Assembly (NCBI GenBank): GCA_017431825.1
Contig: JAFRKI010000002.1
Coordinates: 155,863-219,862, forward strand
Length of the DNA: 64,000 nt
Direction of reading: 5' to 3'
From: Erysipelotrichaceae bacterium
GTDB lineage: Bacteria > Bacillota_I > Bacilli_A > Erysipelotrichales > Erysipelotrichaceae
Both the position numbers and the translations under genes were made by a program. The notes under the pieces were generated by a model that saw nothing but the letters and a program-made list of their open reading frames with translations, ran no database searches and was not told the DNA's origin. Positions 35,728 to 57,165 of the stretch are shown piece by piece. The first letter of the stretch is position 1. The number at the start of each line of letters is the position of its first letter.

Positions 35728-36217
35728 GGAGTATGTGTCTGAAAACGAACCTTTCTATTCTTCGGTTGAAGGAAGTTATCCTGCTGTCGGATTCCACTAT
35801 CGGTCTTACGTATATGGTATGAACACCGGCACCGTTGCCGCCCAGGATATCGGTAAGAAGCTGATCGCCCATACAGATGACTTCATTTCTCCTGATCTTA
35901 TAGTCTCTGATGGCCTTATTGAACTTGAAAGGTAGCGGCTTCATGCACCAGCAGTAGTATTCGCAATTCAGAGACCTGGCTACTTTCCCCACTCTTTCAT
36001 CGGTATTGTTGGAAAAGACGATGACCTTGAAACCGGCTTCCTTGAGCTTTCTTACGAATTCCTTTCCTTCATCATCGGGTATCTTCTGATAATGAGGGGT
36101 TATGGTATTGTCCACATCCAAAAGGATGACCGAATAGCCTTCGGATCTTTTGCCTTCCATGTCAAAATCCTGGTATCTTTCCAGTCGTTCGTCAGGTCTG
36201 AATATGTTCATAGTCAT
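35714..36217 (-). CDS. yqeG: YqeG-family HAD phosphatase
   Basis: 167 aa. HAD motif I LLDVDNT, plus synteny. Confidence 0.8.
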   Translation of the reverse strand: MTMNIFRPDERLERYQDFDMEGKRSEGYSVILLDVDNTITPHYQKIPDDEGKEFVRKLKEAGFKVIVFSNNTDERVGKVARSLNCEYYCWCMKPLPFKFNKAIRDYKIRRNEVICMGDQLLTDILGGNGAGVHTIYVRPIVESDSRITSFNRRIERFVFRHILHEKV

Positions 36218-41361: not shown

Positions 41362-42297
41362 TTATTTATTCTTGTTTCTGATGAATTCTTTGACCTTCTC
41401 GATGGTCGTGACACCGCCTCTAGGCCCTTCCTTGGTTATGGACATGGCAGCAGCACAGTTGGCGAATTCCAGTGCATACTCCAGGTCGTATCCCAGCATG
41501 AACGTGGCCATAAAGGTGGCATTCATGGTGTCTCCGGCACCGGTGCAGTCAACGATATCTACCTTATTGGCAGGCAGTGATATATCGACTCCATCTTTTG
41601 TCAGCAGCCGGCAGCCTTCGGCACCAAGCGTCAGCAGGAGGTTCTTGATATCCAGATCGAAGATCTCCCTGATGAACTCCTCTTCGGTCATGTCCTCGCC
41701 TTTTCTGAAGGTCTCGAAACCGAATTCGTTCATGCTGACGGTATGGGCATGTCTTACATAATCCCTCCAGTCCTTACAGAAGTAGTTGGATTCAACGTCA
41801 AAGAAGGTCTTTACACCGTTCTCATGCAGGAAATTCATGAAACCCTTGACGTCATCCAGTATTCCCACATAGCCGATGGTTCCGTATACGAATTCCGCAT
41901 TCCTGAAGAAGTCCAGCTGTTCATCACTTAAGTGATATCTCGGCGGTTCTTCATTTACACAGAAGATCGAACGATCTCCGTCAGGGAACTGGAAGATGAG
42001 ACACTTGGAATCCTTTACGGAATCCAGTCTGATGACCCGGGAGATATCGACGTTGCTCCTGATGAGGTCATCATAGAGAAAGTCTTCACTCGGATCGGTG
42101 CTTTTGACGTCAAAGACATAGGTCTTGATGCCATAACCTGCACAGACGCAGGCCGCATTGGCGATCATGCCACCGGCTACCGGTCCGATGTACTTGGCAT
42201 TGGCCTTTTCACCCTTGGCCATCCAGTTATCCATTCTGTAGTACTCGTCCACACAGGCAAAGCCCATGAAGACGGCATAGGGTTTATTTGTTTCCAT
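41362..42297 (-). CDS. PfkB-family carbohydrate/nucleoside kinase (last gene of the locus)
   Basis: 311 aa. PfkB signature DIVDCTGAGDTMNATF. Its start lies 1 nt after the stop of the preceding ARH gene. Confidence 0.75.
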   Translation of the reverse strand: METNKPYAVFMGFACVDEYYRMDNWMAKGEKANAKYIGPVAGGMIANAACVCAGYGIKTYVFDVKSTDPSEDFLYDDLIRSNVDISRVIRLDSVKDSKCLIFQFPDGDRSIFCVNEEPPRYHLSDEQLDFFRNAEFVYGTIGYVGILDDVKGFMNFLHENGVKTFFDVESNYFCKDWRDYVRHAHTVSMNEFGFETFRKGEDMTEEEFIREIFDLDIKNLLLTLGAEGCRLLTKDGVDISLPANKVDIVDCTGAGDTMNATFMATFMLGYDLEYALEFANCAAAMSITKEGPRGGVTTIEKVKEFIRNKNK

Positions 42298-42298
42298 T

Positions 42299-43375
42299 TT
42301 ACTTACCTGTTGTCAGTTCGCTTACCTTTCTGGCAACCTCACACAGATCGAAGCTGTTGGCCTTCTGTATCATGTCCAGATGATACTGGGCATTGGTGAT
42401 GCCGCTGAAACCCTGATAGGCACCGCACATCGATCCGCAGATGGCACCGACCGTATCGGTATCATCACCTGCGTTCATAGCCATGTGGATAGCCTTAAGG
42501 GTATCGCCTCCGGCAGCCACCATGAAACCGAATCCGGCCGGAATGGCTTCGGTGGCCCTGATGCCAAGACCTACCAGGTCATTCATTTCCGTGATGCATC
42601 TGTCAAAGTCATCACTGTACTTTAGACCGATGCCTACGGCCAGTTTCATGCGTTCCACAACGTCTGAACCGGTGACCGAAGGATAGATCTTTGAAGCTCT
42701 CAGATAGCCTTCCTTAGCACCATAGAAGCCCGCATCGAGCACCTTGTCCAGGGTCGAGTGTTCATCCATGGCCACAGCGGTCGCAGCAGCTACGGCTGCA
42801 CCAGCCGATAAGGCGATCCTGTTTGGATGCGTGATGCCCGCATAGACGATGAGATCATCTATGGCCTTATCCGGATCAAGCGGATTGAATACGCCGGCAA
42901 CGAAGGCCTTCATACCGGCGCCGTTGGTCGATGCCTTGTTCAGAGGATAACTGCCATGACTTCCGTCATACTCCACGTACGGCCTGTTATCTTCCAGGGC
43001 ATAATAACCCACCAGCTTGGCGATGGCGTCTCTGGTCGATGGTCCTGAATGCGGTATGTAGTATTCCGGTATCTTCGACCATTCCAGCAGGCCTCTTTTG
43101 GCTCCTTCTTCCGTGATCTTTCCGTCTTTCAGGAATTCTAATGCTGAAATATAGGAAACGGAAAGGTCATCAGTAGCGATACCCAGCCTTCTGGCAGGAG
43201 GATATTCCGCAACCAGCGTAGTCTCCAGAGGCACCGTGTAATCAAACGTATAGTCACCGTTGCCGATGTCTTTCTTTATGAGATATGTCGGCCTTGTCTC
43301 TGTAGGAGCACCCAGGGCATCGCCCATTCCGCAGCCCAGGAAGGCACCAAGAGTTCTGTCATAATTGATATTCAT
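42299..43375 (-). CDS. ADP-ribosylglycohydrolase-family protein, paralogue type 1
   Basis: 358 aa. N-terminal motif LGCGMGDALGAPTETRP and C-terminal metal motif NAGDDTDTVGAICGSMCGAY. Confidence 0.8.
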   Translation of the reverse strand: MNINYDRTLGAFLGCGMGDALGAPTETRPTYLIKKDIGNGDYTFDYTVPLETTLVAEYPPARRLGIATDDLSVSYISALEFLKDGKITEEGAKRGLLEWSKIPEYYIPHSGPSTRDAIAKLVGYYALEDNRPYVEYDGSHGSYPLNKASTNGAGMKAFVAGVFNPLDPDKAIDDLIVYAGITHPNRIALSAGAAVAAATAVAMDEHSTLDKVLDAGFYGAKEGYLRASKIYPSVTGSDVVERMKLAVGIGLKYSDDFDRCITEMNDLVGLGIRATEAIPAGFGFMVAAGGDTLKAIHMAMNAGDDTDTVGAICGSMCGAYQGFSGITNAQYHLDMIQKANSFDLCEVARKVSELTTGK

Positions 43376-43377
43376 TC

Positions 43378-44412
43378 TTAATTACCTCCCAGATACGTAT
43401 CGATGTCCTCAGCCATCTTTTCCAGATCGAAACCGTTCTCTCTGTTGATGAGATCGAGGTATTTGTCCTTAAGCACTCCAGGACCCTCGAGCGCACCAAC
43501 GATGAATCCGGCCATGCAGCCTACCGTATCGGTATCATCGCCCGCATTTACGGCCATCAGGATTGTCTTCCAGATGTCGCCTTTTACGGCAGTGATGATA
43601 CCGAAGGCAGCCGGAACGGCTTCATTAGCCGGTAATCCGGTCCCGATGATCTTCGAAATGCTTTCCATGGCTTCGTCGAAATCATCCTGATACTGCAGTC
43701 CCAGATCGATGGCATATTCCATACGTCTTTCTATCGTAGCACCGCAGGTCGGTACCGTAATGTCTACGCTTCTCTTATAGCCTTCCCTGGCTCCGTAGAA
43801 ACCGGCTTCGACCACTTCAAGCCAGGATACTCTTTCTTCCATGGCTTTGGCAGTCGCGGCAGCTATCGCACAGGCACCGGATAAAGCGATGGCATTGTCA
43901 TGAGTCACCTTACACATGACGATGGCTTCATCGATGGCCTTATCGACGTTACCGGCATTGAGTAAGCCGATGATGCCGACTTTCATGGCGGCACCGTTGC
44001 TGGCTTCCCTGTTTCTGGTTACCAGATTGTCCTGCTTGGTATGCGGCATCGGAATGCCTTTGATACGGTTATAGGCGGCACGGGAAGTCGGACCGGCATA
44101 ACGGGTATACTTGGAATCAGGTTCGTCAAACCAGCGGATCACCGCTCTTTTGGCTCCTTCTTCGCTTACCTTGCCGTCCTTGAGGAATTCTTCCGCACTG
44201 TAATAAGCGATGGAAAAATCATCGGTCACGACACCTTTGGTGGTACCGCCGTGCGGGAATGATCCCTCAGGCATGTCCACGATGTCCGTGCAGAGTCCGC
44301 CGAAGTATTTCTTAATAGTCTCTATCGAACCGTTTTCCGTACAGCAGCCCATCGCATCCGCAACGGAAGCTGCCAGTAAGGAACCCAGGATCTTGGATCG
44401 TCTGTCTGACAT
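43378..44412 (-). CDS. ADP-ribosylglycohydrolase-family protein, paralogue type 2
   Basis: 344 aa. LAASVADAMGCCTENGS and NAGDDTDTVGCMAGFIVGAL. Confidence 0.8.
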   Translation of the reverse strand: MSDRRSKILGSLLAASVADAMGCCTENGSIETIKKYFGGLCTDIVDMPEGSFPHGGTTKGVVTDDFSIAYYSAEEFLKDGKVSEEGAKRAVIRWFDEPDSKYTRYAGPTSRAAYNRIKGIPMPHTKQDNLVTRNREASNGAAMKVGIIGLLNAGNVDKAIDEAIVMCKVTHDNAIALSGACAIAAATAKAMEERVSWLEVVEAGFYGAREGYKRSVDITVPTCGATIERRMEYAIDLGLQYQDDFDEAMESISKIIGTGLPANEAVPAAFGIITAVKGDIWKTILMAVNAGDDTDTVGCMAGFIVGALEGPGVLKDKYLDLINRENGFDLEKMAEDIDTYLGGN

Positions 44413-44413
44413 C

Positions 44414-45454
44414 TTAAGCCTTTCCGTTTAAGATCTTATCTATATCCTTGGCCAGCTTTTCGAGTTCGATGTCGTTCTGCTTTTCAAGGAACTTGAGGTT
44501 CTTAGCCGGTAAGGATTCGACGCCGTTTAAGGCACCGAGGATGCCTCCGACCATGGTAGCTATCGTATCGGTATCATCACCGATGTTGACACCGCCATAG
44601 ATGCCCTGCATCGTATCGCCCTTGGCAGCTACCATCAGACCGAAGACGGCCGGAATGGCTTCGTTGGCTGCCAGGCTTGAGCCTACCAGTGAACCCAGCT
44701 TATCGATGGCTTCATCCATGTCTTTGGCAGTAAGACCGACCCAGATAGCCAGTTTCATTCTTTCTTCGACACTGGCACCGGCGTTCTCATGGTACTTGGC
44801 ACCGAGTCTTTCGCCTTCTCTGGCGCCGTAAAGACCGGCCTGTACGACTTTGAACAGGTCTGCGTCGTCATTCATGGCGCAGGCTGTAGCTGCTGCTACG
44901 GCACAGGATCCGGCCAGAGCGATCTGGTTAGGATGAGTGAGCGATGCGACCGTGATGGCGATCTTGATGGCCTTGTCGACATCGCCGCCGCTGAACAGCG
45001 CAACCGGAGCGATCTTCATGCCGGCGCCGTTGGATGACTGGGCATTCATGTTTACCGGCGTAAAGAGATTGGCCGGATCGAACTTGTTGACATCAGGAGC
45101 AGTGCCTTTCATCTTGGCAATGTTTGCTCTGGTGGTAGGACCCGCAAAACGGGAGAACCATTTGTCTACTTCCGACCATTCCAGTAAGGCTTTCTTGGCA
45201 ACGGCTTTGGTTACAACACCCTTATTGTCAGCGATCCTTCTGGCTGTCACATAGGCGACAGAGAAGTCATCGGTGATCTGACCGGCCTTGGAGCCTCGGG
45301 CATAGGTATCCTTAGGCGGCGCATAGAATTTCTTTACGTCACCGCCGAAAAATTCATGGATCTGCTTACGGGAACGGATCTCCGTTGCGGCACCCATGGC
45401 GTCGCCGGTAGCTCCGCCTACCAGACAGCCTAAAATCTTGTTATATGCAATCAT
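44414..45454 (-). CDS. ADP-ribosylglycohydrolase-family protein, paralogue type 3
   Basis: 346 aa. VGGATGDAMGAATEIRS and NIGDDTDTIATMVGGILGAL. Confidence 0.8.
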   Translation of the reverse strand: MIAYNKILGCLVGGATGDAMGAATEIRSRKQIHEFFGGDVKKFYAPPKDTYARGSKAGQITDDFSVAYVTARRIADNKGVVTKAVAKKALLEWSEVDKWFSRFAGPTTRANIAKMKGTAPDVNKFDPANLFTPVNMNAQSSNGAGMKIAPVALFSGGDVDKAIKIAITVASLTHPNQIALAGSCAVAAATACAMNDDADLFKVVQAGLYGAREGERLGAKYHENAGASVEERMKLAIWVGLTAKDMDEAIDKLGSLVGSSLAANEAIPAVFGLMVAAKGDTMQGIYGGVNIGDDTDTIATMVGGILGALNGVESLPAKNLKFLEKQNDIELEKLAKDIDKILNGKA

Positions 45455-45477: not shown

Positions 45478-46503
45478 TTAATCAGTAAACTTATCAACTG
45501 CGTCTATAAGACCCTTGATATCGAGATCATTGGCTTCAGACAGAAAAGACATGTAGTTGCTCGGAATGTCCTTAGCGCCGGAATAGGCACCGCACATGGC
45601 ACCGGTTATGGCCGCGATGGTATCGGTATCATTACCGCAGTTGACGCCCATGTAGATGGCATCCATAACCTTGCCTTTGGCAGCTACAAAGAAACCGAAG
45701 GCCGCAGGGATAGCTTCATTGGCGTTGAGCCCCGTACCTACCAGACCGGCCATCTCCTTGAGCAGTCCATCGAAATCATTCGCATAATTCACGCCGATGG
45801 TAACGGCCATCCTGATCCTGTCTTCGACACTGGCACCGGCTGACGGTTTGGTGAATTTCCAGGATCTTTCATAGCCTTCATGGGCACCGTAAAGCCCGGC
45901 ACTTACCACATCGTCAAGCGTGGAATTCTTCGTCATGGCCACAGCGGTAGCAGCAGCTACGGCAGCAGCGGCAGAAAGAGCGACTGGATTGTCGTGAGTG
46001 ACCTTGCACATGGTCATCGCATCTTCGATGGCCTTTTCCACATTGCCCATGTTGAAGACACCGGCTACCCAGGCTTTCATGCCGGCTCCGTTAGTGGCGG
46101 CAGAATTGTTGCAGCAGGCATAATCGTTCTTTGTATCCACTTCTTCACCCTTGATAAGAGCGATGGCTTTCTTGGAAGTAGGACCGGAATGAGCTATGTA
46201 GTAACGATCATATTTGGACCATTCGACCATGGCCTTTTCGGCAGCTTCCTTGGTGATTCCTCCGGCTTCAATGAATGCCTTGGAACTGAGATAGCTTACC
46301 GAGAAGTCATCGGTACACTGGCCGGCCGGCTGTCCGGCAGCCAAAGTGTCAGGACGAGGTTCAACGAACTTCTTTACATAGCGTCCGCCGCCTACGTCTT
46401 TCTTTATCAGATCGGTAGGACGAGTTTCTGTCGGTGCGCCCATGGCATCACCGATGGCACAACCTAAATACGCACCTTTGATGCGATCATACTTGGTAGT
46501 CAT
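45478..46503 (-). CDS. ADP-ribosylglycohydrolase-family protein, paralogue type 1'
   Basis: 341 aa. LGCAIGDAMGAPTETRP and NCGNDTDTIAAITGAMCGAY. Its start overlaps the upstream stop as TAATG. Confidence 0.8.
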   Translation of the reverse strand: MTTKYDRIKGAYLGCAIGDAMGAPTETRPTDLIKKDVGGGRYVKKFVEPRPDTLAAGQPAGQCTDDFSVSYLSSKAFIEAGGITKEAAEKAMVEWSKYDRYYIAHSGPTSKKAIALIKGEEVDTKNDYACCNNSAATNGAGMKAWVAGVFNMGNVEKAIEDAMTMCKVTHDNPVALSAAAAVAAATAVAMTKNSTLDDVVSAGLYGAHEGYERSWKFTKPSAGASVEDRIRMAVTIGVNYANDFDGLLKEMAGLVGTGLNANEAIPAAFGFFVAAKGKVMDAIYMGVNCGNDTDTIAAITGAMCGAYSGAKDIPSNYMSFLSEANDLDIKGLIDAVDKFTD

Positions 46504-47543
46504 TACTTGTCCTCCTTTTCCAGAAGCTTGCAGATCTTCGTGGCCGTCTTTCTCAGATCGAACTTGTTTTCCTTTTCGATCAGTTCCAGGAATCTGGCAG
46601 GAATGCGGTCATAACCGTTCAGGGCACCGACGATATATCCGGCCATGCAGGCAACAGTATCGGTATCATCGCCGGCATTGACAGCCATGACGATGGTGTC
46701 CATCGCATTGCCCTTGGTAGCGGCAATATAACCGAAGGCAGCCGGAACGGCTTCCGCAGCCGGCAGGCCGCCGCCGATCTCTCTTGAGAGGATGTCCATG
46801 GCTTCGTCGAATCTGCCCTGGTACCTCATGCCCAGATCAACTGCGTGCCTGATCCTCCTGACGATATCAGGACCGGCAACGGGACTTACACCTTCGATCT
46901 TCGAAGAACGCAGGAATCCCTGTTCAGCACCGTAGATACCGGCTTCGATAACGTCGAGATAGGAAACCCTGTCCTTGCAGGCTTCTGCTACGGCAGCAGC
47001 TATGGCGCAGGTACCGGCTAAAGCGATGGTATTGTCATGAGTAGGCTTGCACATTGTGATGGCATCATCGATGGCCTTATCGACGTTGCAGGCATCAAAG
47101 AGGCCTACACATCCTACCTTCATGGCACCGCCGTTAGAGGCTCTGCTGTTTACGCACAGTAGTCTGTCCTGCTTGGTAGGAGGAAGCTTCTGACCCTTCA
47201 TCCGGGCAATCGAACGCCTGGTGGTAGGTCCGGCACACTGCGAATAGTTAGGATCTTCAAACCACTTAAGGACAGCCTTTTCGGCACCCTTTTCCGTGAT
47301 CTTACCCTTGTCCTTTATTATCTGCAGGGCATGGTAATAGGAAACGGAGAAATCATCCGTGACCTGTCCTCTTCTGGACCAGTGGGCCCAGGTATCTTCA
47401 GGAGCCTGAATGATATCGGTCACCAGATGTCCCCATTTGTCTTTGATCATTCCGGTGGTACGTATCTCGGTCGAGGCACCCATGGCATCGCCGGTTGCGC
47501 CTCCTAAAAGACCGCCTAAGATCTTGTCATATATATTCCGCAT
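46503..47543 (-). CDS. ADP-ribosylglycohydrolase-family protein, paralogue type 2'
   Basis: The ORF track extends to 47618. I place the start at ATG 47541-47543 (MRNIYDKILGGLLGGATGDAMGASTEIRT), preceded by AAAGGA, which gives 346 aa. C-terminal motif NAGDDTDTVACMAGYIVGAL. Confidence 0.8.
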   Translation of the reverse strand: MRNIYDKILGGLLGGATGDAMGASTEIRTTGMIKDKWGHLVTDIIQAPEDTWAHWSRRGQVTDDFSVSYYHALQIIKDKGKITEKGAEKAVLKWFEDPNYSQCAGPTTRRSIARMKGQKLPPTKQDRLLCVNSRASNGGAMKVGCVGLFDACNVDKAIDDAITMCKPTHDNTIALAGTCAIAAAVAEACKDRVSYLDVIEAGIYGAEQGFLRSSKIEGVSPVAGPDIVRRIRHAVDLGMRYQGRFDEAMDILSREIGGGLPAAEAVPAAFGYIAATKGNAMDTIVMAVNAGDDTDTVACMAGYIVGALNGYDRIPARFLELIEKENKFDLRKTATKICKLLEKEDK

Positions 47544-47559
47544 ATTATATCCTTTCAGT

Positions 47560-48471
47560 TTAGATCTTGCCGAACTTCTTGAGGTTCTTGAAGTTGGTAA
47601 TGAACAGAATGATGACAACAGCCAGATACGGCAGCATGCCGGTAAACTGGGTCGGAACGCCCAGCGATGACCAGGTCAAAGCCAGAGCCTGGCAGTAACC
47701 GAAGATCAGACCGAACAGCATGCCTTTTAGAGGGTTGCCGTCAGCGACCATGGTGGATGCCATGACCATGAAGCCTCTACCACCCGACATGTTTTCGGTA
47801 AACATGGCCAGGGAATTAAGAGACAGGAAGGCACCGGCCAGTCCCATCGTAGCACCTGATACCAGCATGGCTATCCAGCGGTACTTGACGACTGAAACAC
47901 CGGCCGTTTCCGCAGCTTCCGGATTAAGACCTAAAGCACGGATACGGATACCGAACGTCGTCTTATACATGACGATATAAGCGATTATGGTAAGTATCGG
48001 AGCCAGCCATACCAGCAGCGTCTGGTTATTGAAGATGTCCTTGATGAAAGGAATGGAATTGATGACCGGTATATCGATGGTATCGTAGCTTACGGCACCG
48101 ACGTTGGTGGCTCCACGGGTATGGAAGATCATTACCAGCAGCATGGTGGTAAGGCCCCAGCCCGATAGATTGAAGCCGACACCGGTTATCAGTCCGTTGG
48201 CCCCCAGGTGGAAGGTAAACAGTCCGTATAGCGCAGCCAGAACGACGGCAGCGATGACACCGAACAGTGTACCGATCATATAGTTCTTAGTCAGATAGCT
48301 GCCCAGTAAAGCGAAGAAGGCGGCTATCAGCATAAAGCTTTCCAGGGCGATGTTCATGATTCCCGCTTTTCTGCAGAAACAGTAGCCGGCAATACCCAGA
48401 ATAAGAGGAGCCGACATACGGAACGTCGCATTCAAGGTTACAGTTGAAAACATAACACGTAAGAGTTCCAT
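47560..48471 (-). CDS. ABC permease of the BMP/nucleoside-type importer (NupQ/RnsD-like)
   Basis: 303 aa polytopic protein with typical family architecture. It is in an operon with a BMP-family binding protein. Confidence 0.75.
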   Translation of the reverse strand: MELLRVMFSTVTLNATFRMSAPLILGIAGYCFCRKAGIMNIALESFMLIAAFFALLGSYLTKNYMIGTLFGVIAAVVLAALYGLFTFHLGANGLITGVGFNLSGWGLTTMLLVMIFHTRGATNVGAVSYDTIDIPVINSIPFIKDIFNNQTLLVWLAPILTIIAYIVMYKTTFGIRIRALGLNPEAAETAGVSVVKYRWIAMLVSGATMGLAGAFLSLNSLAMFTENMSGGRGFMVMASTMVADGNPLKGMLFGLIFGYCQALALTWSSLGVPTQFTGMLPYLAVVIILFITNFKNLKKFGKI

Positions 48472-48475
48472 TCAA

Positions 48476-49570
48476 CTATTCCTCCTTCTTAATAGCTTCA
48501 CGAGCTTTTTTATCTTTATACTTGCGGTAAAGCATACCGTAATCGATGGAAATAAAGAGTACGAATAAAGCCTGCAGGAGGTTCATCGTATATCTGTTCA
48601 AAGTGGTGGCTCTTTCCATCTGCATGGCACCTGTCTTGAAGGCGGCCCAGATGAAGGATACCAGCAGTACGCCGACCGGAGAGTTGGCCGCAACACGGGT
48701 GATCATGACACCATCCCAGCCCAGGTTCGCCGAGAACTGGGCGATGAAACGGTGGTTGACGCCGATTACCTCGGTAGCTCCGCAGATACCGGCAATGAAT
48801 CCGGATACCAGGAAGATGATGATGAACATCTTATTGGAATCGACACCGCCGGCTCTTGAGAACGGCAGATTGGAACCGACCATCTTCATTTCGTATCCTA
48901 CCAGCGTATACTTATACAGCAGATAGACGATGAGGATGATCGCCAAGGCCAGGAAAAGACCGGTCGTAGCCGAAGTTCCTTTGATGATAGGCGTCAGTTC
49001 CGCCGTCTTATTGACGAAAGGCGTAACGATGGAAGTCTGTGAAGTAGCCGAGTTGCCGCCCATGAGTTTCAAGGTAATGTATTCGGTAGCCAGTACCGCT
49101 ACATAGTTCAAAAGCAGCGTCGTTATGACTTCATCGATCTTGAAATACAGTTTCAGCAGGGCCGGTATCAGCGCATACAGAAGACCCGCAAGACCGCCGG
49201 CAAAGATACAGGCAAGCTGATGAACGACCGGAGGCAGTTCGATCATATAGCCGACACAGGCAGCGGTCAGTGCACCGAAATAAAGCTGTCCTTCAAGACC
49301 CAGGTTGAAGACGCCGGATTTGAAGGCAACGGCTGCGGAAATGCCTACCAGCATACACGGTATCGCCCAGTGGATGGTATTGCCGATAGCCAGTTTGGAA
49401 CCGAAGGCTCCTTTGAACATTTCTCTAAGAGCGACGCCGGCATTGGCGTTGTTGGCAACGATCAGCAGATATCCGATCAGTAAGGTAGCGATCAGCGATA
49501 TGACGTATCTGGCAACATTGATCTTGGTGCTGTCAGCCAGAAAATGTTTGAGACTATTCAATGGTTTCAT
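48476..49570 (-). CDS. ABC permease of the BMP/nucleoside-type importer (NupP/RnsC-like)
   Basis: About 364 aa. The ORF-track start at 49585 is a GTG adjacent to AGGAGG. ATG 49568-49570 (MKPLNSLKHF) is more plausible, but the start remains ambiguous. Confidence 0.75.
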   Translation of the reverse strand: MKPLNSLKHFLADSTKINVARYVISLIATLLIGYLLIVANNANAGVALREMFKGAFGSKLAIGNTIHWAIPCMLVGISAAVAFKSGVFNLGLEGQLYFGALTAACVGYMIELPPVVHQLACIFAGGLAGLLYALIPALLKLYFKIDEVITTLLLNYVAVLATEYITLKLMGGNSATSQTSIVTPFVNKTAELTPIIKGTSATTGLFLALAIILIVYLLYKYTLVGYEMKMVGSNLPFSRAGGVDSNKMFIIIFLVSGFIAGICGATEVIGVNHRFIAQFSANLGWDGVMITRVAANSPVGVLLVSFIWAAFKTGAMQMERATTLNRYTMNLLQALFVLFISIDYGMLYRKYKDKKAREAIKKEE

Positions 49571-51110
49571 ATTTCTGTGCCACACCTCCTGTCATTAATA
49601 AGCCTAACTGGGATTCATCGAATTCGCCGTATTTGCCTCCGTCATAGAGTTCGCCGTTATACATGACCATGATACGGTCGGAGAGCTCCATGACTTCATT
49701 GAGTTCATGGCTCACCAGCAGTACGGCAGCGCCCTGGGAAGCGAATTCCAGCAGTTTGCCCCAGATGTATTCGATGGCACCGACGTCGATTCCTCGGGTC
49801 GGGTCTTCGATCAGCAGAAGCTTGTTGTCCTGGGAGAATTCCCTTCCGACTATCAGCTTCTGGATATTGCCGCCGGATAATGATCCGACATTGGAATTGA
49901 TGCTCTGGACCTTTACGGCAAAGTCATCGACGACTTTCTCCGTAAACTGGTTGGCATCCTTATGATCTACCAGCCATCTGGTCTTGAAACCGTGGGCTCT
50001 GTGATAACCCATGATGGTGTTTTCCCAGATGCTGGTCTTGACATCACATCCCATGACCATACGGTCCTGAGGAACGTAGCCGATATGGTCGGCACGGTTT
50101 TCCCTAGGGGTATTGCCCGTAATGTCTTTGCCCAGATATTCGATCTTACTGCCCTCGGCAGCCTTACTTAAGCCAAAGATGGTCTTGCTTAAGTACTGCT
50201 GTCCAGATCCGGCAACACCGGCGATACCCAGGATCTCACCTGCATGGATATCGAAACTTACATTCTTAAGTCTCTGGATGTTATCCTGGTCATAGACCGA
50301 AAGGTTCCTGACGCTTAATACCGGTTCGCCAGGTTCGCCCGGCTGCTTGTTGGCCTGAAGGATGACTTCCCTTCCGACCATCAGGTTAGCCAGTTTCTGC
50401 TGGTTCAGATCCTTAGGATCATATGTACCGACATATTTGCCTAAACGAAGTACGGTGATCTCATCACTTACTTCAAATACTTCCTGCAGTTTATGGGTAA
50501 TAAACAGGATAGTCTTGCCGGCTGCCTTCAGTACCCGCATGGCCTGGAACAGACCTTCGATACCCTGTGGAGTAAGAGTAGAAGTCGGTTCGTCCATGAT
50601 GATCAGATCGGCACCACGGTAAAGCACTTTGACAATTTCAATCTGCTGCAGCATGGCAACAGGCAGCTCGTTGATGACTTCATCCAGCGGAAGATTGAAA
50701 TTGTAGTCCTTGCAGATCTTTTCAACTTTTTCTCTGGACTTCTTGTAATCAACGAAAGCGCCTTTCGTTTCTTCAAAACCGACGATGATATTCTCAAATA
50801 CACTAAAGTTAGGTGCCAGCATGAATTCCTGGTAGATCATACCGATACCATGTCTGCAGGCATCCATCGGATTCCTGAATACGACCTTTTCCCCGTTGAG
50901 GATGATGTCGCCATAGTCAGGTTTTACCGTATCGGTAAGGATACCCATTAAGGTAGACTTGCCCGCACCGTTTTCACCGACTATTGCATGGATGGTATTA
51001 CGCTTAACTTTAAGTGAGATATGATCGTTGGCTTTTAAAGGGCCATAGAACTTGCAGATATCTCTTGTCTCAAGTACATATTCACTCTGATTCGAGATAT
51101 TTTCGCTCAT
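49554..51110 (-). CDS. Double-domain ABC ATPase of the BMP/nucleoside-type importer
   Basis: 518 aa. Two nucleotide-binding domains (GENGAGKST; LSGGNIQK). Confidence 0.8.
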   Translation of the reverse strand: MSENISNQSEYVLETRDICKFYGPLKANDHISLKVKRNTIHAIVGENGAGKSTLMGILTDTVKPDYGDIILNGEKVVFRNPMDACRHGIGMIYQEFMLAPNFSVFENIIVGFEETKGAFVDYKKSREKVEKICKDYNFNLPLDEVINELPVAMLQQIEIVKVLYRGADLIIMDEPTSTLTPQGIEGLFQAMRVLKAAGKTILFITHKLQEVFEVSDEITVLRLGKYVGTYDPKDLNQQKLANLMVGREVILQANKQPGEPGEPVLSVRNLSVYDQDNIQRLKNVSFDIHAGEILGIAGVAGSGQQYLSKTIFGLSKAAEGSKIEYLGKDITGNTPRENRADHIGYVPQDRMVMGCDVKTSIWENTIMGYHRAHGFKTRWLVDHKDANQFTEKVVDDFAVKVQSINSNVGSLSGGNIQKLIVGREFSQDNKLLLIEDPTRGIDVGAIEYIWGKLLEFASQGAAVLLVSHELNEVMELSDRIMVMYNGELYDGGKYGEFDESQLGLLMTGGVAQKYETIE

Positions 51111-51190: not shown

Positions 51191-52249
51191 TTACTGATAG
51201 TCAGATGGATCCCAACGATAGGAATCGTAACCTGCATATACATCAACAGCACCGGAAGCGATGTCAGCCATCAGCTGAGTGACCTTTTCCTGTACTTCTG
51301 CCGGTAAGAGATCGAAGTCTCTCTGATCATATACAGCAGCACCAGCAGCGATATCGTAGTAGCATACATGACCTTCCCAGGTACCGTCAGCAACTTCTCT
51401 GCAGCACTTGGTGATAGCGTCATTGATAGGCTTTAATGCAGACCAGAATACAGTTTCCTGACCGAAGTCGCCGCCCTGCCACATATCAACACCGATAGCC
51501 TTGACGCCTTCTTCCTTACATTCAGTCATAACGCCTAAACCGGAAGTATTGGCAGCCTGGTCGATGATGTCTACGCCGTATTCAGCGATCATAGCCTTGG
51601 CAGCTTCCTGACCCTTGTTGGCATCCTGAGCATCGCCGGTGTAACCGAAGATTACTTCAGTGCCGTTGTCAGCATACTTAACGCCGCCTTCGAAACCGTA
51701 TTTGAATCTGTCCTGAGAAACCTGATCAGTATGGCCTAACCAGCCGACTTTACCGGCTTCAGTCATCTGAGCTGCAACATAACCGGCAACGAATTCAGAC
51801 TCCCATGGGTCACAAATGATATTTGCGCAGTTGGTAGTCTTGTTGGCACCTAATACATAAGAGTCATTCAGGAAGATCTTAAGATCAGGATAGTTTTCAG
51901 CCAGTTCATCAGCTAACTGTAAAGCAACTTCACCGAGAGCATCGAATTCAGTTACGATTACATGGTAGCCTTCAGCAGCCATGGCACGGATCTGGTCAGC
52001 GAACTCGGAAGTTTCTTTGACTTCGAGGATCTTGACGTCCCAGCCTTCCTGTTCAAGGACCTTGACACCAGTTACACACATAGCTGTAAATGGAGCAGCC
52101 TCACCATACTGAGTGATGTAAACAACACTCTTAACAGGATCGACACCGGTAGTCGGTTCATCACCGCCCTGAGGCTCGCCGCCACCGGAGCATGCTACTA
52201 ATGCCAGACATACTAACACAGTAGCAAGAACTTTGAATAGTTTCTTCAT
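51191..52249 (-). CDS. BMP/PnrA (Med/TmpC) family ABC substrate-binding lipoprotein
   Basis: 352 aa. Lipobox LVACSGG. BMP-family features (..AGYVAAQMT.., ..FGYTGD..D..KG...A......GVD.I..AA...G.GV). Confidence 0.75.
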   Translation of the reverse strand: MKKLFKVLATVLVCLALVACSGGGEPQGGDEPTTGVDPVKSVVYITQYGEAAPFTAMCVTGVKVLEQEGWDVKILEVKETSEFADQIRAMAAEGYHVIVTEFDALGEVALQLADELAENYPDLKIFLNDSYVLGANKTTNCANIICDPWESEFVAGYVAAQMTEAGKVGWLGHTDQVSQDRFKYGFEGGVKYADNGTEVIFGYTGDAQDANKGQEAAKAMIAEYGVDIIDQAANTSGLGVMTECKEEGVKAIGVDMWQGGDFGQETVFWSALKPINDAITKCCREVADGTWEGHVCYYDIAAGAAVYDQRDFDLLPAEVQEKVTQLMADIASGAVDVYAGYDSYRWDPSDYQ

Positions 52250-52368
52250 TTTTTTCCTCCCTTGTAGTAAATTTAGAAACTTGAGCGTATATATGCATTT
52301 TAATGTGCATATGTAAACGCATTCATGTTCATTAAAAATATTATATGCTTACTTGGTCTATGTTTCAA

Positions 52369-53160
52369 TCACTTAGATAGCTGTTTTATGAACGTTTTCA
52401 CTCGTAAAAGATCGACAGGATTATTGACGTTACCGCCTTTTTTAAATGAACTTCCCACTATGGCACCGTCGATGATCTCAAAGAATTCCTTAGCGTTGTC
52501 CTTATTTACGCCGCTGCCCACGAATACAGGCATATTATGGGCCATTTTCTTAAAGTTAAGGGCATCTTCCACGCTTGGGCTCTTACCCGTCGTAATGCCC
52601 GTTAAAATGAGGGCATCGGCACCTCCTTCGATGCAGGATTCGATGGTGAAATCAAGCGGCTGATCGGTCAATGGGAAAGTGTGCTTGACGTTTACGTCAG
52701 CCAGTATCACGATATCCTTCGGGTACTGTGCTCTTATACGCATGAGCTTAGGTCCGGCCGCTTCCAGGATACCGTTAGGACCGCAGCGGTTTTCAGCCAG
52801 TACCTCGACTCTGATGAAGTCATAACCGCAGGCATAGGCCAGAGCCCACTCGGCTTCGATGTCATTGTACTGAAAATTGATGCCCATAGGAAGTTTAGTC
52901 AGTTTCCTTAATTTCGTGGCAATAACCGCAAAGGAAGTAACTGCGATCAGGGAATTGTTCTGAGCGTAAGGAACGTCTCCGAAATTCTCGATGATAACCG
53001 CATTGCAGCCACCTTCGATCAGCGCCTTCAGGTCCTTTTCCGCTGCTTTGTATACCTTGTCAAGATCGCCGCAGAAACCCACGGAACCCGGTAAAGGCAG
53101 CAGATGGACCATGCCTACCACGATCTTCTTATTTCCGAATAGCTTTTCGTATCTGTTCAT
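52369..53160 (-). CDS. BtpA/SgcQ-family TIM-barrel protein
   Basis: 263 aa. N-terminus IVVGMVHLLPLPGS...AVIIENFGDVPY is characteristic of the BtpA/SgcQ family. Confidence 0.75.
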   Translation of the reverse strand: MNRYEKLFGNKKIVVGMVHLLPLPGSVGFCGDLDKVYKAAEKDLKALIEGGCNAVIIENFGDVPYAQNNSLIAVTSFAVIATKLRKLTKLPMGINFQYNDIEAEWALAYACGYDFIRVEVLAENRCGPNGILEAAGPKLMRIRAQYPKDIVILADVNVKHTFPLTDQPLDFTIESCIEGGADALILTGITTGKSPSVEDALNFKKMAHNMPVFVGSGVNKDNAKEFFEIIDGAIVGSSFKKGGNVNNPVDLLRVKTFIKQLSK

Positions 53161-53161
53161 T

Positions 53162-54121
53162 TTATGCTTCCTTTAATTTCTTTACCAGTTCATTCCAGTA
53201 GAAGTCGATATTGGATGAGTTGATAAGACCGTATTCACAGATTAGACCGGTAATATCGGAAGCCGGCGTCACGTCAAAGAACTGATTGATGACCGTCAGG
53301 TTCTTATGGCTCTTGAAGTCTCCTTTGGAAATGATCTCGTTTTCCGTCCTTCTTTCCAGTTCGATCGGTACACCTTTCTTGGTGAGCGGGTTGTATTTAT
53401 ACAGTTCGGCTGCGACATAGAACGGTTTCTTGCACAGTTTGGCCAGTGCCGCCAGCATGGCGGTGCCCATCTTATTGGCGATTGAACCGTTAGAAGCCAG
53501 TGAATCGGCACCTACCAGAATGAAGTCAGCCTTCGGCATGAACTCGTAAGCTTCCGCATCAGTGATGTAGATGATTTTTTCATCCCATTCCTGCAGGTAG
53601 TGAACAGCTTTGCGGGATTCCCTTAACGGACGAGATTCCGTGCAGATGACAGTGAATTTCTTGCCCTGTTCGGCTGCCTTTATGAAGATGGCCATCAGGG
53701 TACTGGTATAACTGTGCATCATGATGGTGCTGCCGTCCTTTATCAGATTGGCTCCTACTTCAGCCATCTTGTCTATCGCCGCATATGAGTTATCGATGAT
53801 ATTGTCACAGACCTTAATGACCTTTTCCTTGATCACTTTGAGGTCTTCGTTCTTATTCTCTTCATAGACTTCCTCGATGATGTTGCAGGAATTATGGATG
53901 GTGCCCATGGTCGGCTTAAGGGTCAGCATCTGCTTTTTCAGGTCCTTATAGCGGGTTCGGAGCTCTCTTTTGGTGTTGAGCTTTTCCTTCTGCGTTGCGA
54001 GCTTTAAAGCCCAGGCAGCGGCACGGCCGAAAGGACTGCCGCCCTTGACGTTCATGTCTCTGATCTCCTGAACGACGTGATCTGCCGATCTGAAATCAAT
54101 GTCTTTTACTTTTTCTCTCAT
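53162..54121 (-). CDS. eIF-2B alpha/beta/delta-family sugar-phosphate isomerase homologue (ribose-1,5-bisphosphate-isomerase-like)
   Basis: 319 aa. IRDMNVKGGSPFGRAAAWAL, CTESRP, LVGADSLASNGSIANKMGT, FDVTP. The size and motif spacing match archaeal R15P isomerase more than MtnA. Confidence 0.7.
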   Translation of the reverse strand: MREKVKDIDFRSADHVVQEIRDMNVKGGSPFGRAAAWALKLATQKEKLNTKRELRTRYKDLKKQMLTLKPTMGTIHNSCNIIEEVYEENKNEDLKVIKEKVIKVCDNIIDNSYAAIDKMAEVGANLIKDGSTIMMHSYTSTLMAIFIKAAEQGKKFTVICTESRPLRESRKAVHYLQEWDEKIIYITDAEAYEFMPKADFILVGADSLASNGSIANKMGTAMLAALAKLCKKPFYVAAELYKYNPLTKKGVPIELERRTENEIISKGDFKSHKNLTVINQFFDVTPASDITGLICEYGLINSSNIDFYWNELVKKLKEA

Positions 54122-54182
54122 TTTTCTCCTCCTTGATTATCAGTATCTATATCCTCCCTTAATACCTCAGGGGAATAACTGC

Positions 54183-55169
54183 CTATATCCTTTCGAGATA
54201 TACTCTGTCTTCTTCCTGTTTCCAGTCAAGACCGTTTTCCTTTAAAAGCTCCTTCATGGCTTCAACGGTCGGACAATGGATGCCGGTGCCCGGTGTCATC
54301 GTCTTGACGGCTCCGGCCGCATTGGCGACGTTCATATAGGAATCGACGTCCCAGTCATGAAGATATCCGTACATGACCGCCGCAAAGAAGGAATCCCCGG
54401 CCCCCATCGTGTCGATCTTAGGGACCTTAAAGCCAGGATACCACTTCCCGTTTCTTTCTTTGTCTATCACGAAGCAGCCTCTGGCTCCGGCCTTTACGAT
54501 GACGATACCCTTCGTCTTTTCCGCCATCTTCCGGGCGGCTTCTTCCTCATCCTTTATTCCGGTATAGATCTCGGCTTCCTCATTGTTGAAGCAGACGATG
54601 TCGCTGAGTTCCATTATCTCTGCCATTATTTCAGGATCGATGTTGCCAACGACCGGTCCCGGATCAAAGAATAAGGACTTGCCCTGTTTATGGAATTCCC
54701 GGTATGCATACATGCAGTCCCGGATCATCGGCAGATCTTTATCCCCGTGCATGCTGTAACCGGACATATAGAAGGCCCTGCATTCCTTTATGAAACCGTC
54801 AAGCAGCTTCCGGTCAACATAATCGGCCGTAGGCAAAGTAGCCGCAAAGGTATGATGTCCGGCCTTGTCGATAAGACAGTTGGAGACCTGGGTTTCAAAA
54901 CCTTCCTTAACGATCAGACCTTTAGTCTCTATGCCCAGCTTCTCATAGGTCCTTTTCATCCATTCGCCGTAGATATCATCGCCGATCGGACAGTAAGGCA
55001 GGCATTTGCCTCCCAGTCTTTCATAGACCACGAAAACGTTTCCGGATCCTCCGGGCTGCCATTCGATGTTGCCGATACGGATATAGGTATCTCCTTCGAT
55101 AGGAAAAAGTCCGTCTATCCTTTGAACGACGTCTACGGGTAAACAGGTCATATCCAGCAGGTCATACAT
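54183..55169 (-). CDS. PfkB-family kinase (first gene of the locus)
   Basis: 328 aa. PfkB signature KIDTMGAGDSFFAAV and GG dipeptide QPGGSGNV. Confidence 0.75.
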   Translation of the reverse strand: MYDLLDMTCLPVDVVQRIDGLFPIEGDTYIRIGNIEWQPGGSGNVFVVYERLGGKCLPYCPIGDDIYGEWMKRTYEKLGIETKGLIVKEGFETQVSNCLIDKAGHHTFAATLPTADYVDRKLLDGFIKECRAFYMSGYSMHGDKDLPMIRDCMYAYREFHKQGKSLFFDPGPVVGNIDPEIMAEIMELSDIVCFNNEEAEIYTGIKDEEEAARKMAEKTKGIVIVKAGARGCFVIDKERNGKWYPGFKVPKIDTMGAGDSFFAAVMYGYLHDWDVDSYMNVANAAGAVKTMTPGTGIHCPTVEAMKELLKENGLDWKQEEDRVYLERI

Positions 55170-55717: not shown

Positions 55718-56269
55718 TTATTCGCAAAACGGAGTAAGCATCTTACGGTATACTGCCTTGAGCTCATTGATGTCGTTTTCGTCGTAGTCGCTGCCGGTCC
55801 AGGTAGTGCCTACCTGATAGGACGTAATGATGCCGTCTACTACCGTAAAGACTTCCGGAGTCTGTATCTCCTTGCCTTCATCTCCTTCATTGAGCGTCGT
55901 ATATAAAAGATCGAAGAGGATGTCGTAATTATCGGTACCCAGTATCGGATATTCATCGGACATTGCATCGATGTAGTAGATAGTAACACCCAGTTCTTCC
56001 GCTACCGCATTGAGATACTGCATCGCCATCTGACAGTGATTGCAGCCCGTCCTGCTCAAGACGAAGACGCCGTAGCCCTTCTCATTTACCGTTCTTTCAA
56101 GTTCCCTGACAGTCGTGCCCTTGAACATATGCTTCGTTGAACTGAGACCTTCATAGCCGGACATATCGCAGGCATAGGTCTCCAGCTCAAAAGGCTTGCT
56201 CATATCGGGCTTTTTATTGCAGGCACTGAGGCACAGTAAAAGGATCAGCAGGCAGATTATCTTTTTCAC
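55718..56269 (-). CDS. Thioredoxin-fold lipoprotein with a CxxC motif
   Basis: 183 aa. Lipobox LSAC and redox motif GCNHC. Overlaps the upstream kinase gene by 4 nt. Confidence 0.6.
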   Translation of the reverse strand: MKKIICLLILLLCLSACNKKPDMSKPFELETYACDMSGYEGLSSTKHMFKGTTVRELERTVNEKGYGVFVLSRTGCNHCQMAMQYLNAVAEELGVTIYYIDAMSDEYPILGTDNYDILFDLLYTTLNEGDEGKEIQTPEVFTVVDGIITSYQVGTTWTGSDYDENDINELKAVYRKMLTPFCE

Positions 56270-57165
56270 TTGTATTCGAACCTCTCGGCTTTGAGTTCTT
56301 TATAGTTCTTATGGATGAGATCCATGTCGGCGGTCCTTTCCAGCAGATTGGTAGATATCGTTACCGCATTGGCGCTTAGGAAGGCTTCTTCCGGTGATGC
56401 CGCCTTAAGGCTGGCCCACAGGAATCCGGCTATCATGGAATCGTTGGTACCGATAAGAGACTGCGGATTCTTATCGGAGATATCACATTTGTAGTAGCAG
56501 TCTTTGGTACACATGATCGAAGGCATGTAGTGAGCCGAATACATGAAGTATTTTGCGCCCTGGTCGATGTATCTCTTTCCGACTTTTACCACTTCATCGA
56601 GGTCCTTGCCGATGACGAAATAAGTCATCTTGATCAGGAACGGCTTATATGGAGCCAGACGTTCGATAATGTCATAATCGGTATCCAAAATGACCTTATG
56701 TCCGCTTTCCATGAGCTTTATCATAGTCTCAACGACTTTTTCCTTAAGATCTTCCTGAACGTTGCCGCTGAGTACGACATAATCGTTTTCAAAGATATAA
56801 TCGAAACGCTTCAGGAACCTTTCGAATTCCTCATCGGTGATGTCCGGTCCCTTGGCGTTAAGGGAAGTCTCTTCACCGGCATCGATCTTGACGTTTATTC
56901 GGGTACTGCCCTTGATCGGCGTGAATAAAGGCTGGATGTGCTCATAGCCGGCCAGGATATCGAGGTAATAATCCTTATTGTAGCCGCCCAGGAAGCCCAA
57001 AGCAGTAGAGTTTATGCCCAAATTATTAAGGAATTTTGATACGTTGACGCCCTTTCCGGCCGCATCAAAGGTCTCGCCTTTGGATCTGTTAAGTACGCCG
57101 ACATTGAGTTCATCGATCTTGAGATAATAATCCAGTGAAGGATTGGTTGTAATCGTATAAATCAT
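56266..57165 (-). CDS. 1-phosphofructokinase/tagatose-6-P-kinase-like PfkB kinase (divergent signature)
   Basis: 299 aa. N-terminus MIYTITTNPSLDYY..., AAGKGVNVS. The second PfkB signature reads GTNDS instead of GAGDS. Confidence 0.6.
   Translation of the reverse strand: MIYTITTNPSLDYYLKIDELNVGVLNRSKGETFDAAGKGVNVSKFLNNLGINSTALGFLGGYNKDYYLDILAGYEHIQPLFTPIKGSTRINVKIDAGEETSLNAKGPDITDEEFERFLKRFDYIFENDYVVLSGNVQEDLKEKVVETMIKLMESGHKVILDTDYDIIERLAPYKPFLIKMTYFVIGKDLDEVVKVGKRYIDQGAKYFMYSAHYMPSIMCTKDCYYKCDISDKNPQSLIGTNDSMIAGFLWASLKAASPEEAFLSANAVTISTNLLERTADMDLIHKNYKELKAERFEYK

Follow-up and report, generated by a model that had tools for sequence, protein, structure and literature searches.

Several known systems invite comparison with the locus reported here. 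The archaeal pentose-bisphosphate pathway of Thermococcus comprises a ribose-1-phosphate (R1P) kinase, a ribose-1,5-bisphosphate (R15P) isomerase and a type III RuBisCO. The dihydroxyacetone phosphate (DHAP) shunt, which serves for 5-deoxyribose disposal, combines a sugar-1-kinase, an IF-2B-family isomerase (MtnA/DrdI) and a class II aldolase. Escherichia coli harbours the sgc operon (sgcXBCQAER), in which the BtpA-family protein SgcQ, annotated just as a 'putative nucleoside triphosphatase', belongs to a PTS-Gat phosphotransferase system (PTS) and is encoded beside a ribulose-phosphate-3-epimerase-like gene. Its yegTUV genes code for a nucleoside:H+ symporter, the ADP-ribosylglycohydrolase (ARH) YegU and the PfkB-family protein YegV, with GgaR as a GntR repressor (PMC10819704). 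We analysed 64,000 nucleotides of an Erysipelotrichaceae genome (assembly GCA_017431825.1, contig JAFRKI010000002.1, positions 155,863 to 219,862; hereafter the window), in which genes for a ribokinase-like PfkB protein (PfkB_A), an IF-2B-family protein and a BtpA/SgcQ-family protein follow one another. This locus is a variant among nucleoside/riboside catabolic operons; it mixes features of the psuKG, yegTUV, sgc and pentose-bisphosphate pathways and is a member of none of them. The reading that we prefer, and that we hold to be a little short of probable, is that a 13-gene operon scavenges ribosylated compounds and that BtpA processes a sugar phosphate made by a kinase. The analysis establishes gene content, family membership, residue substitutions and neighbourhood conservation, from which we infer the substrates, the order of the steps and all of the chemistry.

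An earlier note on this DNA had described three neighbouring genes, and their open reading frames (ORFs) were confirmed, head to tail on the minus strand: PfkB_A (54183..55169, 328 residues), the IF-2B-family protein, of a bacterial type that we call Ser/Glu (53162..54121, 319 residues), and the TIM-barrel protein BtpA (52369..53160, 263 residues), with spacers of 61 nt between the first two and 1 nt between the last two. Rather than being a module of three genes, as had been proposed, this trio is the 5' end of a 13-gene same-strand run from 55169 to 41362. Downstream of BtpA, a nucleoside-type ATP-binding cassette (ABC) importer is encoded by the genes for a Bmp/PnrA-like substrate-binding lipoprotein (51191..52249, minus strand like all that follow; PF02608, 121.7 bits), a tandem-domain ATPase (49554..51110; two PF00005 domains, 153.8 bits) and two BPD_transp_2 permeases (48476..49585 and 47560..48471; PF02653, 118.1 and 101.7 bits). 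Then come five ARH-family paralogs (PF03747), ARH1 (46503..47618, 162.5 bits), ARH2 (45478..46503, 168.7 bits), ARH3 (44414..45454, 182 bits), ARH4 (43378..44412, 171.2 bits) and ARH5 (42299..43375, 135 bits), and the run closes with a second ribokinase-like kinase, PfkB_B (41362..42297). PfkB_A, the first gene of the operon, is preceded by a ribosome-binding site and a 90-nt spacer, with a small YneF-like ORF further upstream. Promoter and terminator scans gave counts no higher than in shuffled sequences, so the operon boundaries rest on spacing only.

Under the reading that we prefer, the substrates would be nucleosides, modified nucleosides or other ribosides, brought in by the Bmp/PnrA-type ABC system. 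The five diverged ARH paralogs would split the ribosyl-aglycone bonds, each acting on different substrates, and the two PfkB kinases would phosphorylate the riboside or the freed ribose. The Ser/Glu IF-2B protein and BtpA would then turn the pentose phosphate toward central metabolism. The most economical candidate role of the former would be the isomerisation of ribose-5-phosphate (R5P) from PsuG or ARH cleavage, with Glu168 as the base, and BtpA might be an isomerase, epimerase or aldolase for the sugar phosphate made by PfkB or by a PTS. The same architecture is found in relatives, which we designate L010, L084/L085, L086/L087 and L169. As in yegTUV, a nucleoside-type transporter, an ARH hydrolase with intact metal-site motifs and a PfkB kinase are encoded in one operon, and relative L086 also has a GntR regulator. 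Unlike yegTUV, the window has five ARH genes, an ABC/Bmp rather than an MFS transporter, two kinases, and the IF-2B and BtpA genes. We found no relevant literature on IF-2B proteins with PsuG or on ARH with PfkB in catabolism, and no paper that places one of the three uncharacterised components in a riboside operon.

The ARH paralogs are mutually 40-55% identical, and their alignment shows that all five keep the TDD and GDDTDT metal-binding motifs. The listed start of ARH1 is a TTG codon, which gives a 58-nt overlap with the preceding permease gene and a 25-residue N-terminal overhang relative to its paralogs; judging from the alignment, the true start is probably Met26, at about 47543. The Bmp protein is 90% identical to its L084/L085 orthologue. 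Scanning for promoters and repeats singled out the spacer between the BtpA and Bmp genes (52250..52368, minus strand). It harbours a promoter-like TTGAAA-17-TATAAT site (52368-52340), with 11 of 12 matching positions the best of the region, although the overall number of such matches is not above that in shuffles. After this site comes an inverted repeat, GCGTTTACATATGCA...TGCATATATACGC (about 52270-52310, minus strand), and the GCGTTTACATA core of the spacer is partly conserved in L084/L085. The transporter/ARH block may have its own promoter and operator inside the operon, within this spacer.

To place the IF-2B gene in its family context, we collected the neighbourhoods of its clade, comprising about 37 genome loci at 38-78% identity. 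In 25 of them, the gene directly downstream codes for a homologue of pseudouridine-5'-phosphate glycosidase, PsuG (PF04227, 446 bits), whereas BtpA adjoins the IF-2B gene in none. The conserved partner of the IF-2B clade is a PsuG-like C-glycosidase, not BtpA. ARH genes are present in 5-6 of these loci and PfkB genes in a few. Two types of upstream gene sets were found. One has EIIA-Glc, an antiterminator of the BglG type and an EIIBC of the beta-glucoside family (TIGR01995, 415 bits), whereas the other has a GntR/UTRA regulator, a small AIRS-like protein and an ABC importer of the Bmp type. The phosphorylation component is thus a beta-glucoside-type PTS, the AIRS-like protein or PfkB, and all forms have in common uptake, phosphorylation, an enzyme that cleaves ribosyl bonds and the Ser/Glu IF-2B protein. 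Because this four-part core is shared across loci, the IF-2B protein would be expected to handle their common 5-phosphopentose product.

The first type of upstream set forms a five-gene cassette in L012-L029 and others, in which EIIA-Glc, the antiterminator, EIIBC, Ser/Glu IF-2B and the PsuG-like C-glycosidase are encoded together; its hosts include Longicatena caecimuris (L025), Amedibacillus dolichus (L029), Holdemanella (L019) and Enterococcus (L021). This cassette may be a PTS-driven system for the use of pseudouridine or C-ribosides, and we found no literature on it. In L030, L032 and L034, which are from Anaerotruncus and relatives, and in L009, the IF-2B or Bmp-ABC genes have as a neighbour a gene for a glycyl radical enzyme similar to YjjI (PF11230, 595 bits).

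The loci closest to the window form a graded series. The gene order is PfkB-IF2B-PsuG-BtpA-Bmp-ABC in L084/L085, IF2B-PsuG-(LysR)-Bmp-ABC-ARH-ARH-PfkB in L010, and PfkB-GntR-IF2B-[PsuG remnant]-Bmp-ABC-ARH-ARH-PfkB-ARH in L086/L087; L169 and the window have IF2B-BtpA without PsuG. PfkB_A orthologues lie upstream of the IF-2B gene in L084 (60% identity) and L086 (52%), and PfkB_B orthologues come after the ARH genes in L010 and L086. The trio co-occurs outside this genome, in the close relatives L169, L084 and L085 and in the distant L167, which rules out that it is unique to it. In L086 (6630-7418) and L087 (2935-3723), IF-2B and Bmp are separated by 790 nt in which tblastn detected the remains of a degraded PsuG gene, as a match of 47% identity over 53 residues and a second fragment. 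This indicates from sequence that PsuG is being lost in this sublineage. No match was obtained when the window was searched by tblastn for homologues of PsuG, PTS-Bgl, the AIRS-like protein, GntR and YjjI.

The series suggests another explanation of the locus, namely that it is a decaying pseudouridine or C-riboside module, made up of a kinase or PTS, a PsuG-like C-glycosidase and a Ser/Glu IF-2B helper, from which PsuG has been deleted. PfkB_A and IF-2B would then be leftovers, and BtpA, recently inserted out of a PTS cassette, would be a mere passenger, functionally unconnected with either. The frequency of PsuG downstream of IF-2B, the complete PfkB-IF2B-PsuG-BtpA order of L084/L085, the remnant in L086/L087 and the lack of a tblastn match for PsuG in the window all agree with this, as does the nesting of the window's BtpA beside paralogs from the PTS-Man cassette described below. 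Furthermore, PfkB together with PsuG corresponds to the known PsuK/PsuG logic of E. coli (PMC9247573). The likeness to psuK/psuG(/psuT) resides in the core of PfkB, PsuG-like C-glycosidase and nucleoside transporter in L084/L085, L010 and the 25 clade loci. The differences are that the window lacks PsuG, that the related loci all add a Ser/Glu IF-2B protein absent from the E. coli system, and that uptake is by an ABC importer or a beta-glucoside-type PTS rather than an NHS or MFS carrier. Against decay, all three genes of the trio are intact, with tight spacing (1 nt), and L169 keeps them at 78-85% identity. An intact, conserved trio in a second locus devoid of PsuG argues for selection. Moreover, the 4-nt overlap of BtpA with PsuG in L084 points to integration rather than random insertion, the BtpA-PfkB linkage spans the whole family, and PsuG may be encoded outside the window. 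We therefore regard decay as a decidedly unlikely account.

We then examined the IF-2B-family protein itself. It matches PF01008 over the full-length domain (residues 25-301, 211.9 bits for a gathering score of 22.4), and its 319 residues agree with the size of archaeal R15P isomerases (about 322-324), as the earlier note had pointed out. Its best match in the PDB is an archaeal R15P isomerase (R15Pi; 163 bits). It nevertheless failed the equivalog cutoff of TIGR00511 (R15P isomerase, e2b2; 211.5 vs 314.1 bits), and it scored 185.1 on TIGR00524 for a cutoff of 185.85. Alignment with R15Pi from Pyrococcus horikoshii (Ph-R15Pi, PH0208), using the residue roles of PMC5789824, showed that the 5-phosphate-binding residues Ser137 and Lys240 (T139 and K242 in the window protein, position 139 being Ser elsewhere in the clade), the sugar-binding Asn214 and Lys215 (N216 and K217) and the catalytic Asp204, for which Asp202 is also given as numbering (D206), are kept. 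The catalytic base Cys135 (Cys133 in the Tk enzyme) is replaced by Ser137, the 1-phosphate-binding Gln166 by Glu168 and Arg22 and Arg65, of the same role, by Lys26 and Lys69, and the AMP-activator site (Arg124, Arg190, Lys194 and Trp231) is lost, with L126, Y192, P196 and P233 in its place. The R15P-isomerase motif spacing that had been noted for this protein thus breaks down at the catalytic Cys, the aligned stretch reading mtHCHs in R15Pi and mmHSYt in the window protein. A C135S mutant of Ph-R15Pi is devoid of catalytic activity (PMC5789824).

These substitutions characterise a subfamily. Ser137 is invariant in 17/17 clade proteins and in all 70 bacterial homologues fetched, and D206, N216 and K217 are invariant across the clade. 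Among 74 fetched homologues, the Ser/Glu and Cys/Gln pairs covary perfectly, with Ser and Glu in all bacterial proteins and Cys and Gln only in three archaeal homologues and Ph-R15Pi; the genome scan for homologues used the motif [VL]ICTESRPL and its sampling is hence biased, whereas the 17-sequence clade alignment came from a protein search and is free of that bias. Ser/Glu proteins, found among the IF-2B homologues of L010-L083, occur in Firmicutes, Chloroflexi, Calditrichia, Acidobacteria and Thermodesulfobacteriota. Judged by its residues and profile scores, the window protein is a member of the IF-2B fold and not a canonical R15P or 5-methylthioribose-1-phosphate (MTR-1-P) isomerase, so the identity implied earlier does not hold. 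The automatic labels 'ribose 1,5-bisphosphate isomerase' and 'translation initiation factor eIF-2B' carried by these bacterial proteins are probably wrong. The substitutions suggest that the Ser/Glu proteins either use another base on a substrate with another C1 substituent, or have lost catalysis. As the 5-phosphate site and the Asp are kept while Cys is replaced by Ser and Gln by Glu, the substrate would be a pentose 5-phosphate with a non-phosphate C1 substituent. The arrangement of the trio also resembles the DHAP shunt, where three genes, for a kinase, an IF-2B-family isomerase and a third enzyme, together serve to process a ribose derivative. In that system, however, the isomerases keep the catalytic Cys, the kinase is MtnK-like rather than PfkB, and a class II aldolase stands in the place of the BtpA barrel.

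Loss of catalysis would fit with the Ser/Glu IF-2B protein being a non-enzymatic sensor of sugar phosphates or a regulatory subunit like eIF2B-alpha, leaving PfkB_A and BtpA as the only catalytic partners. In eIF2B-alpha, too, the catalytic Cys is lost, with Ala or Gly at its position (PMC5789824), and eIF2B-alpha binds sugar phosphates (PMC8187479). The distant Ser/Glu proteins of Calditrichia and others have housekeeping neighbours, in Calditrichia a response regulator, CutA and CdsA, rather than catabolic genes, and PfkB-BtpA pairs are common without an IF-2B gene. Nevertheless, Asp206, Asn216, Lys217 and the new invariant Glu168 are strictly conserved across phyla, beyond what simple binding needs, and in catabolic operons the gene is flanked by genes for enzymes, with hardly any spacer between them. 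We consider a purely sensory function most improbable.

The earlier note had proposed a possible RuBisCO-less bacterial pentose-bisphosphate route with BtpA as the missing downstream enzyme. Spelled out, PfkB_A would make R15P, the IF-2B protein would isomerise it to ribulose-1,5-bisphosphate (RuBP), and BtpA would act on the ketose bisphosphate as an aldolase, phosphatase or other enzyme. The locus is indeed similar to the archaeal pathway in that a ribokinase-family kinase adjoins an IF-2B protein of the same size in a nucleoside-related context. Archaeal R15Pi is the closest solved structure. The window protein keeps the residues that bind the 5-phosphate as well as the catalytic Asp, and its pocket for the 1-substituent is still cationic (K26, K69 and K217). 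Conversely, the window protein differs from R15Pi by its Ser and Glu, by the lack of an AMP-activator site and by its sub-cutoff scores; the Ser corresponds to the inactive C135S mutant of PH0208, and the Glu is unfavourable for phosphate binding. No R1P-making phosphorylase (PNP_UDP or DeoA-type) was found in the operon or among the ORFs scanned in the 64-kb window, the Pfam scans having covered most ORFs of at least 150 residues. The supply of R1P that the proposal needs is therefore missing from the operon, which has five ARH glycohydrolases instead, and we found nothing that shows a bisphosphate intermediate. The same scans revealed neither RuBisCO nor class II aldolase, in agreement with the note, which had also reported the absence of HAD phosphatases; there is one HAD-type hydrolase (35714-36217), the sole one found, located 16 kb off amid housekeeping genes. 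No enzyme that would consume RuBP, either RuBisCO or the RuBP phosphatase and ribulose-1-phosphate aldolase of the haloarchaeal non-carboxylating variant, was thus found among the scanned ORFs, and BtpA as a substitute is a hypothesis. Both the archaeal and the haloarchaeal routes differ from the window operon, which has ARH glycohydrolases in place of a phosphorylase and lacks RuBisCO, HAD phosphatase and class II aldolase.

Typing of the kinases does not point to R1P either. PfkB_A and PfkB_B pass the gathering score of PF00294 (132.5 and 114.7 bits) and harbour the G[AT]GD catalytic motif, of the GxGD type, at residues 256 and 253, respectively. The top NCBIfam matches of PfkB_A are IolC_N (112.7) and ribokinase (102.4), both far under their cutoffs, and its scores with the R1P kinase models are 83.8 for the ATP-dependent NF053626 (cutoff 330) and 38 for the ADP-dependent NF041134 (cutoff 500). 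PfkB_B also remains under the cutoffs, with 58.8 and 39.7 for these two models and a best match to ribokinase at 84 bits. With all NCBIfam scores far under the cutoffs, the substrates of the two kinases cannot be assigned by typing.

The pentose-bisphosphate proposal also gains from loci other than the window. In L094, L095, L141 and L164, we identified an operon with the order GntR-Bmp-ABC-permeases-isochorismatase-PfkB-PNP_UDP_1-BtpA, followed by genes for an Fe-type alcohol dehydrogenase (Fe-ADH) and a TrpA-like protein or by an aldehyde dehydrogenase (ALDH) gene. It looks like a nucleoside catabolic route ending in an aldehyde, with PNP_UDP_1 as a source of R1P, and thereby resembles the haloarchaeal non-carboxylating variant up to its aldehyde end. 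Of six PfkBs encoded next to BtpA, two match the haloarchaeal ATP-dependent R1P kinase better than any other NCBIfam model, at 150-169 bits for a cutoff of 330, and the distant L167 again combines PfkB, a Ser/Glu IF-2B gene, two BtpA genes, Bmp and permeases. However, the PNP-PfkB-BtpA operons have no IF-2B gene, so that any pathway there is independent of an IF-2B product. We deem the strict model clearly improbable, weakened as it is by the exchanged active-site residues, by the missing R1P source and by the rarity of the IF-2B-BtpA linkage, while the PNP-PfkB-BtpA-ADH operons keep alive a variant of the idea centred on BtpA.

BtpA passes both PF03437 (251.3 bits, cutoff 30) and TIGR00259 (240.3 bits, cutoff 153.4) over its full length, and it does not reach the cutoff of the photosystem I biogenesis BtpA equivalog NF045918 (222.1 vs 400 bits). 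The [FeFe] hydrogenase encoded in the window would fit a non-photosynthetic, anaerobic Firmicute as host. An AlphaFold2 model of the protein is a (beta/alpha)8 barrel (pLDDT 93.8), for which Foldseek retrieved only generic TIM barrels from the PDB, at a TM score of about 0.6. These matches, which include DHPS, HisF, PriA, TrpA, ThiE and KDPG aldolase, do not discriminate between chemistries. Profile searches link BtpA to TrpA, HPS, PcrB, TrpF and OMPDC, only via the beta7-beta8 phosphate-binding region, and sequence searches of the PDB gave no solved BtpA structure, just weak TrpA-like matches in that same region. The earlier grouping of BtpA with the ribulose-phosphate-binding barrels thus receives soft support from the modelled fold and the beta7-beta8 links.

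Twelve positions are invariant in 106 diverse BtpA sequences (H19, E58, N59, D62, N95, R117, G130, D155, G215, G217, G236 and K240), and by the strand positions of the model most of them lie at or just past the C-terminal ends of the barrel strands. Active sites of TIM barrels are usually found at these strand ends. From model and alignment, BtpA looks like a phosphate-binding TIM-barrel enzyme, putatively converting a sugar phosphate. The family is large, with at least 3,500 clusters at 90% identity and members from E. coli to cyanobacteria, and we found no literature on its biochemical function in the library searched. SgcQ of E. coli diverges at three of the invariant positions (E58 to S, D62 to S and D155 to N). 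As in the window, its gene is part of a sugar uptake and phosphorylation operon, with phosphorylation by the PTS instead of PfkB.

The genetic context of BtpA was characterised independently of the IF-2B clade by scanning 80 metagenomic loci. PfkB is its commonest neighbour. Of the 61 loci whose flanks extend for 2 kb or more, 17 have a PfkB gene no further than 5 kb from BtpA, and in 11 of the 80 the two genes directly adjoin. There are 16 PfkB matches in 425 kb near BtpA, and none in 145 kb of far flanks or in 553 kb of control loci. PfkB-linked BtpAs are dispersed over the family tree, and the coupling of BtpA to PfkB thus extends across the family. In a Chloroflexus locus (L080), 3.5 kb separate a PfkB-BtpA pair from an IF-2B homologue that is degenerate. 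The nearest homologues of the window's BtpA (59-65% identity) are encoded in cassettes without IF-2B or PfkB, consisting of PTS-Man components IIB/IICD(/IIA), a protein of the VOC/glyoxalase fold, BtpA, an SDR and another BtpA paralog with about 35% identity. This cassette recurs in L001-L004, L007, L009, L170, L155, L157 and L162, often with an HxlR-type regulator nearby. In a neighbour-joining tree, the window and L084/L085 proteins form a group whose sister is the PTS-Man cassette's first paralog, which suggests that the recruitment of BtpA into the riboside operon is recent and lineage-restricted. It would have taken place only in a narrow lineage, out of the PTS-Man/VOC/SDR cassette. The possibility that BtpA replaces PsuG as its analogue was rejected, since L084/L085 have both.

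From its PfkB and PTS neighbourhoods, BtpA therefore acts downstream of a sugar-phosphorylating step and is itself repeatedly tied to nucleoside catabolism. The proposal that BtpA is the downstream enzyme is in this respect upheld by the PfkB coupling and the phosphate-binding barrel, but its tie to the product of an IF-2B isomerase is not.

Several points count against the riboside-scavenging operon that we prefer. The ARH family is known for ADP-ribosyl substrates rather than nucleosides, and an R5P isomerase would duplicate RpiA/RpiB, present in almost all bacteria. The housekeeping context of the Calditrichia proteins fits a sensor as well as an enzyme. The closest relatives of BtpA serve PTS-mannose systems, probably with hexose-type substrates, so that a pentose is not the only possible substrate here. 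As the broadly conserved partner PsuG is absent from the window and a pseudogene in L086/L087, the IF-2B step may be vestigial in this lineage. Finally, the analogous yegTUV of E. coli is itself functionally unassigned (PMC10819704).

The remainder of the window is of a housekeeping nature, with pheST, L1/L11, murC-like, plsY, parEC, Lon, trigger factor, valyl-tRNA synthetase and [FeFe] hydrogenase genes, and the nearest relatives are Solobacterium and Erysipelotrichaceae metagenome-assembled genomes of ruminant gut origin. An Rfam search of the whole window revealed no riboswitch ahead of the operon, its sole match being a T-box leader (RF00230, 101 bits; 11607-11796, minus strand) directly upstream of the valyl-tRNA synthetase gene (9000-11672). 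A third PfkB, 1-phosphofructokinase-like although its TIGR03828 score of 195 bits does not reach the cutoff (292), is encoded within 55718-57165 (minus strand). Its gene overlaps by 4 nt an ORF for 183 residues without Pfam or NCBIfam match, and the two immediately precede the operon on the same strand.

The locus and its relatives supply testable contexts for BtpA, after a PfkB kinase or a PTS, and often in operons for nucleoside uptake, some of which also code for a nucleoside phosphorylase and for enzymes that handle aldehydes. They also expose a widespread bacterial variant of the IF-2B/R15P-isomerase fold, with a covarying active-site swap and a conserved PsuG partner. A more far-reaching and unlikely interpretation is that BtpA/SgcQ proteins are the missing sugar-phosphate isomerase or aldolase of a widespread, PfkB-fed bacterial route for nucleoside-derived ribose, a RuBisCO-less pentose (bis)phosphate counterpart, and that the Ser/Glu IF-2B proteins are a new class of pentose-phosphate isomerases with a Glu base. 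If true, this would provide first functions for two large uncharacterised families, E. coli sgcQ included. The locus is thus an entry point for de-orphaning both BtpA/SgcQ and the Ser/Glu IF-2B subfamily.

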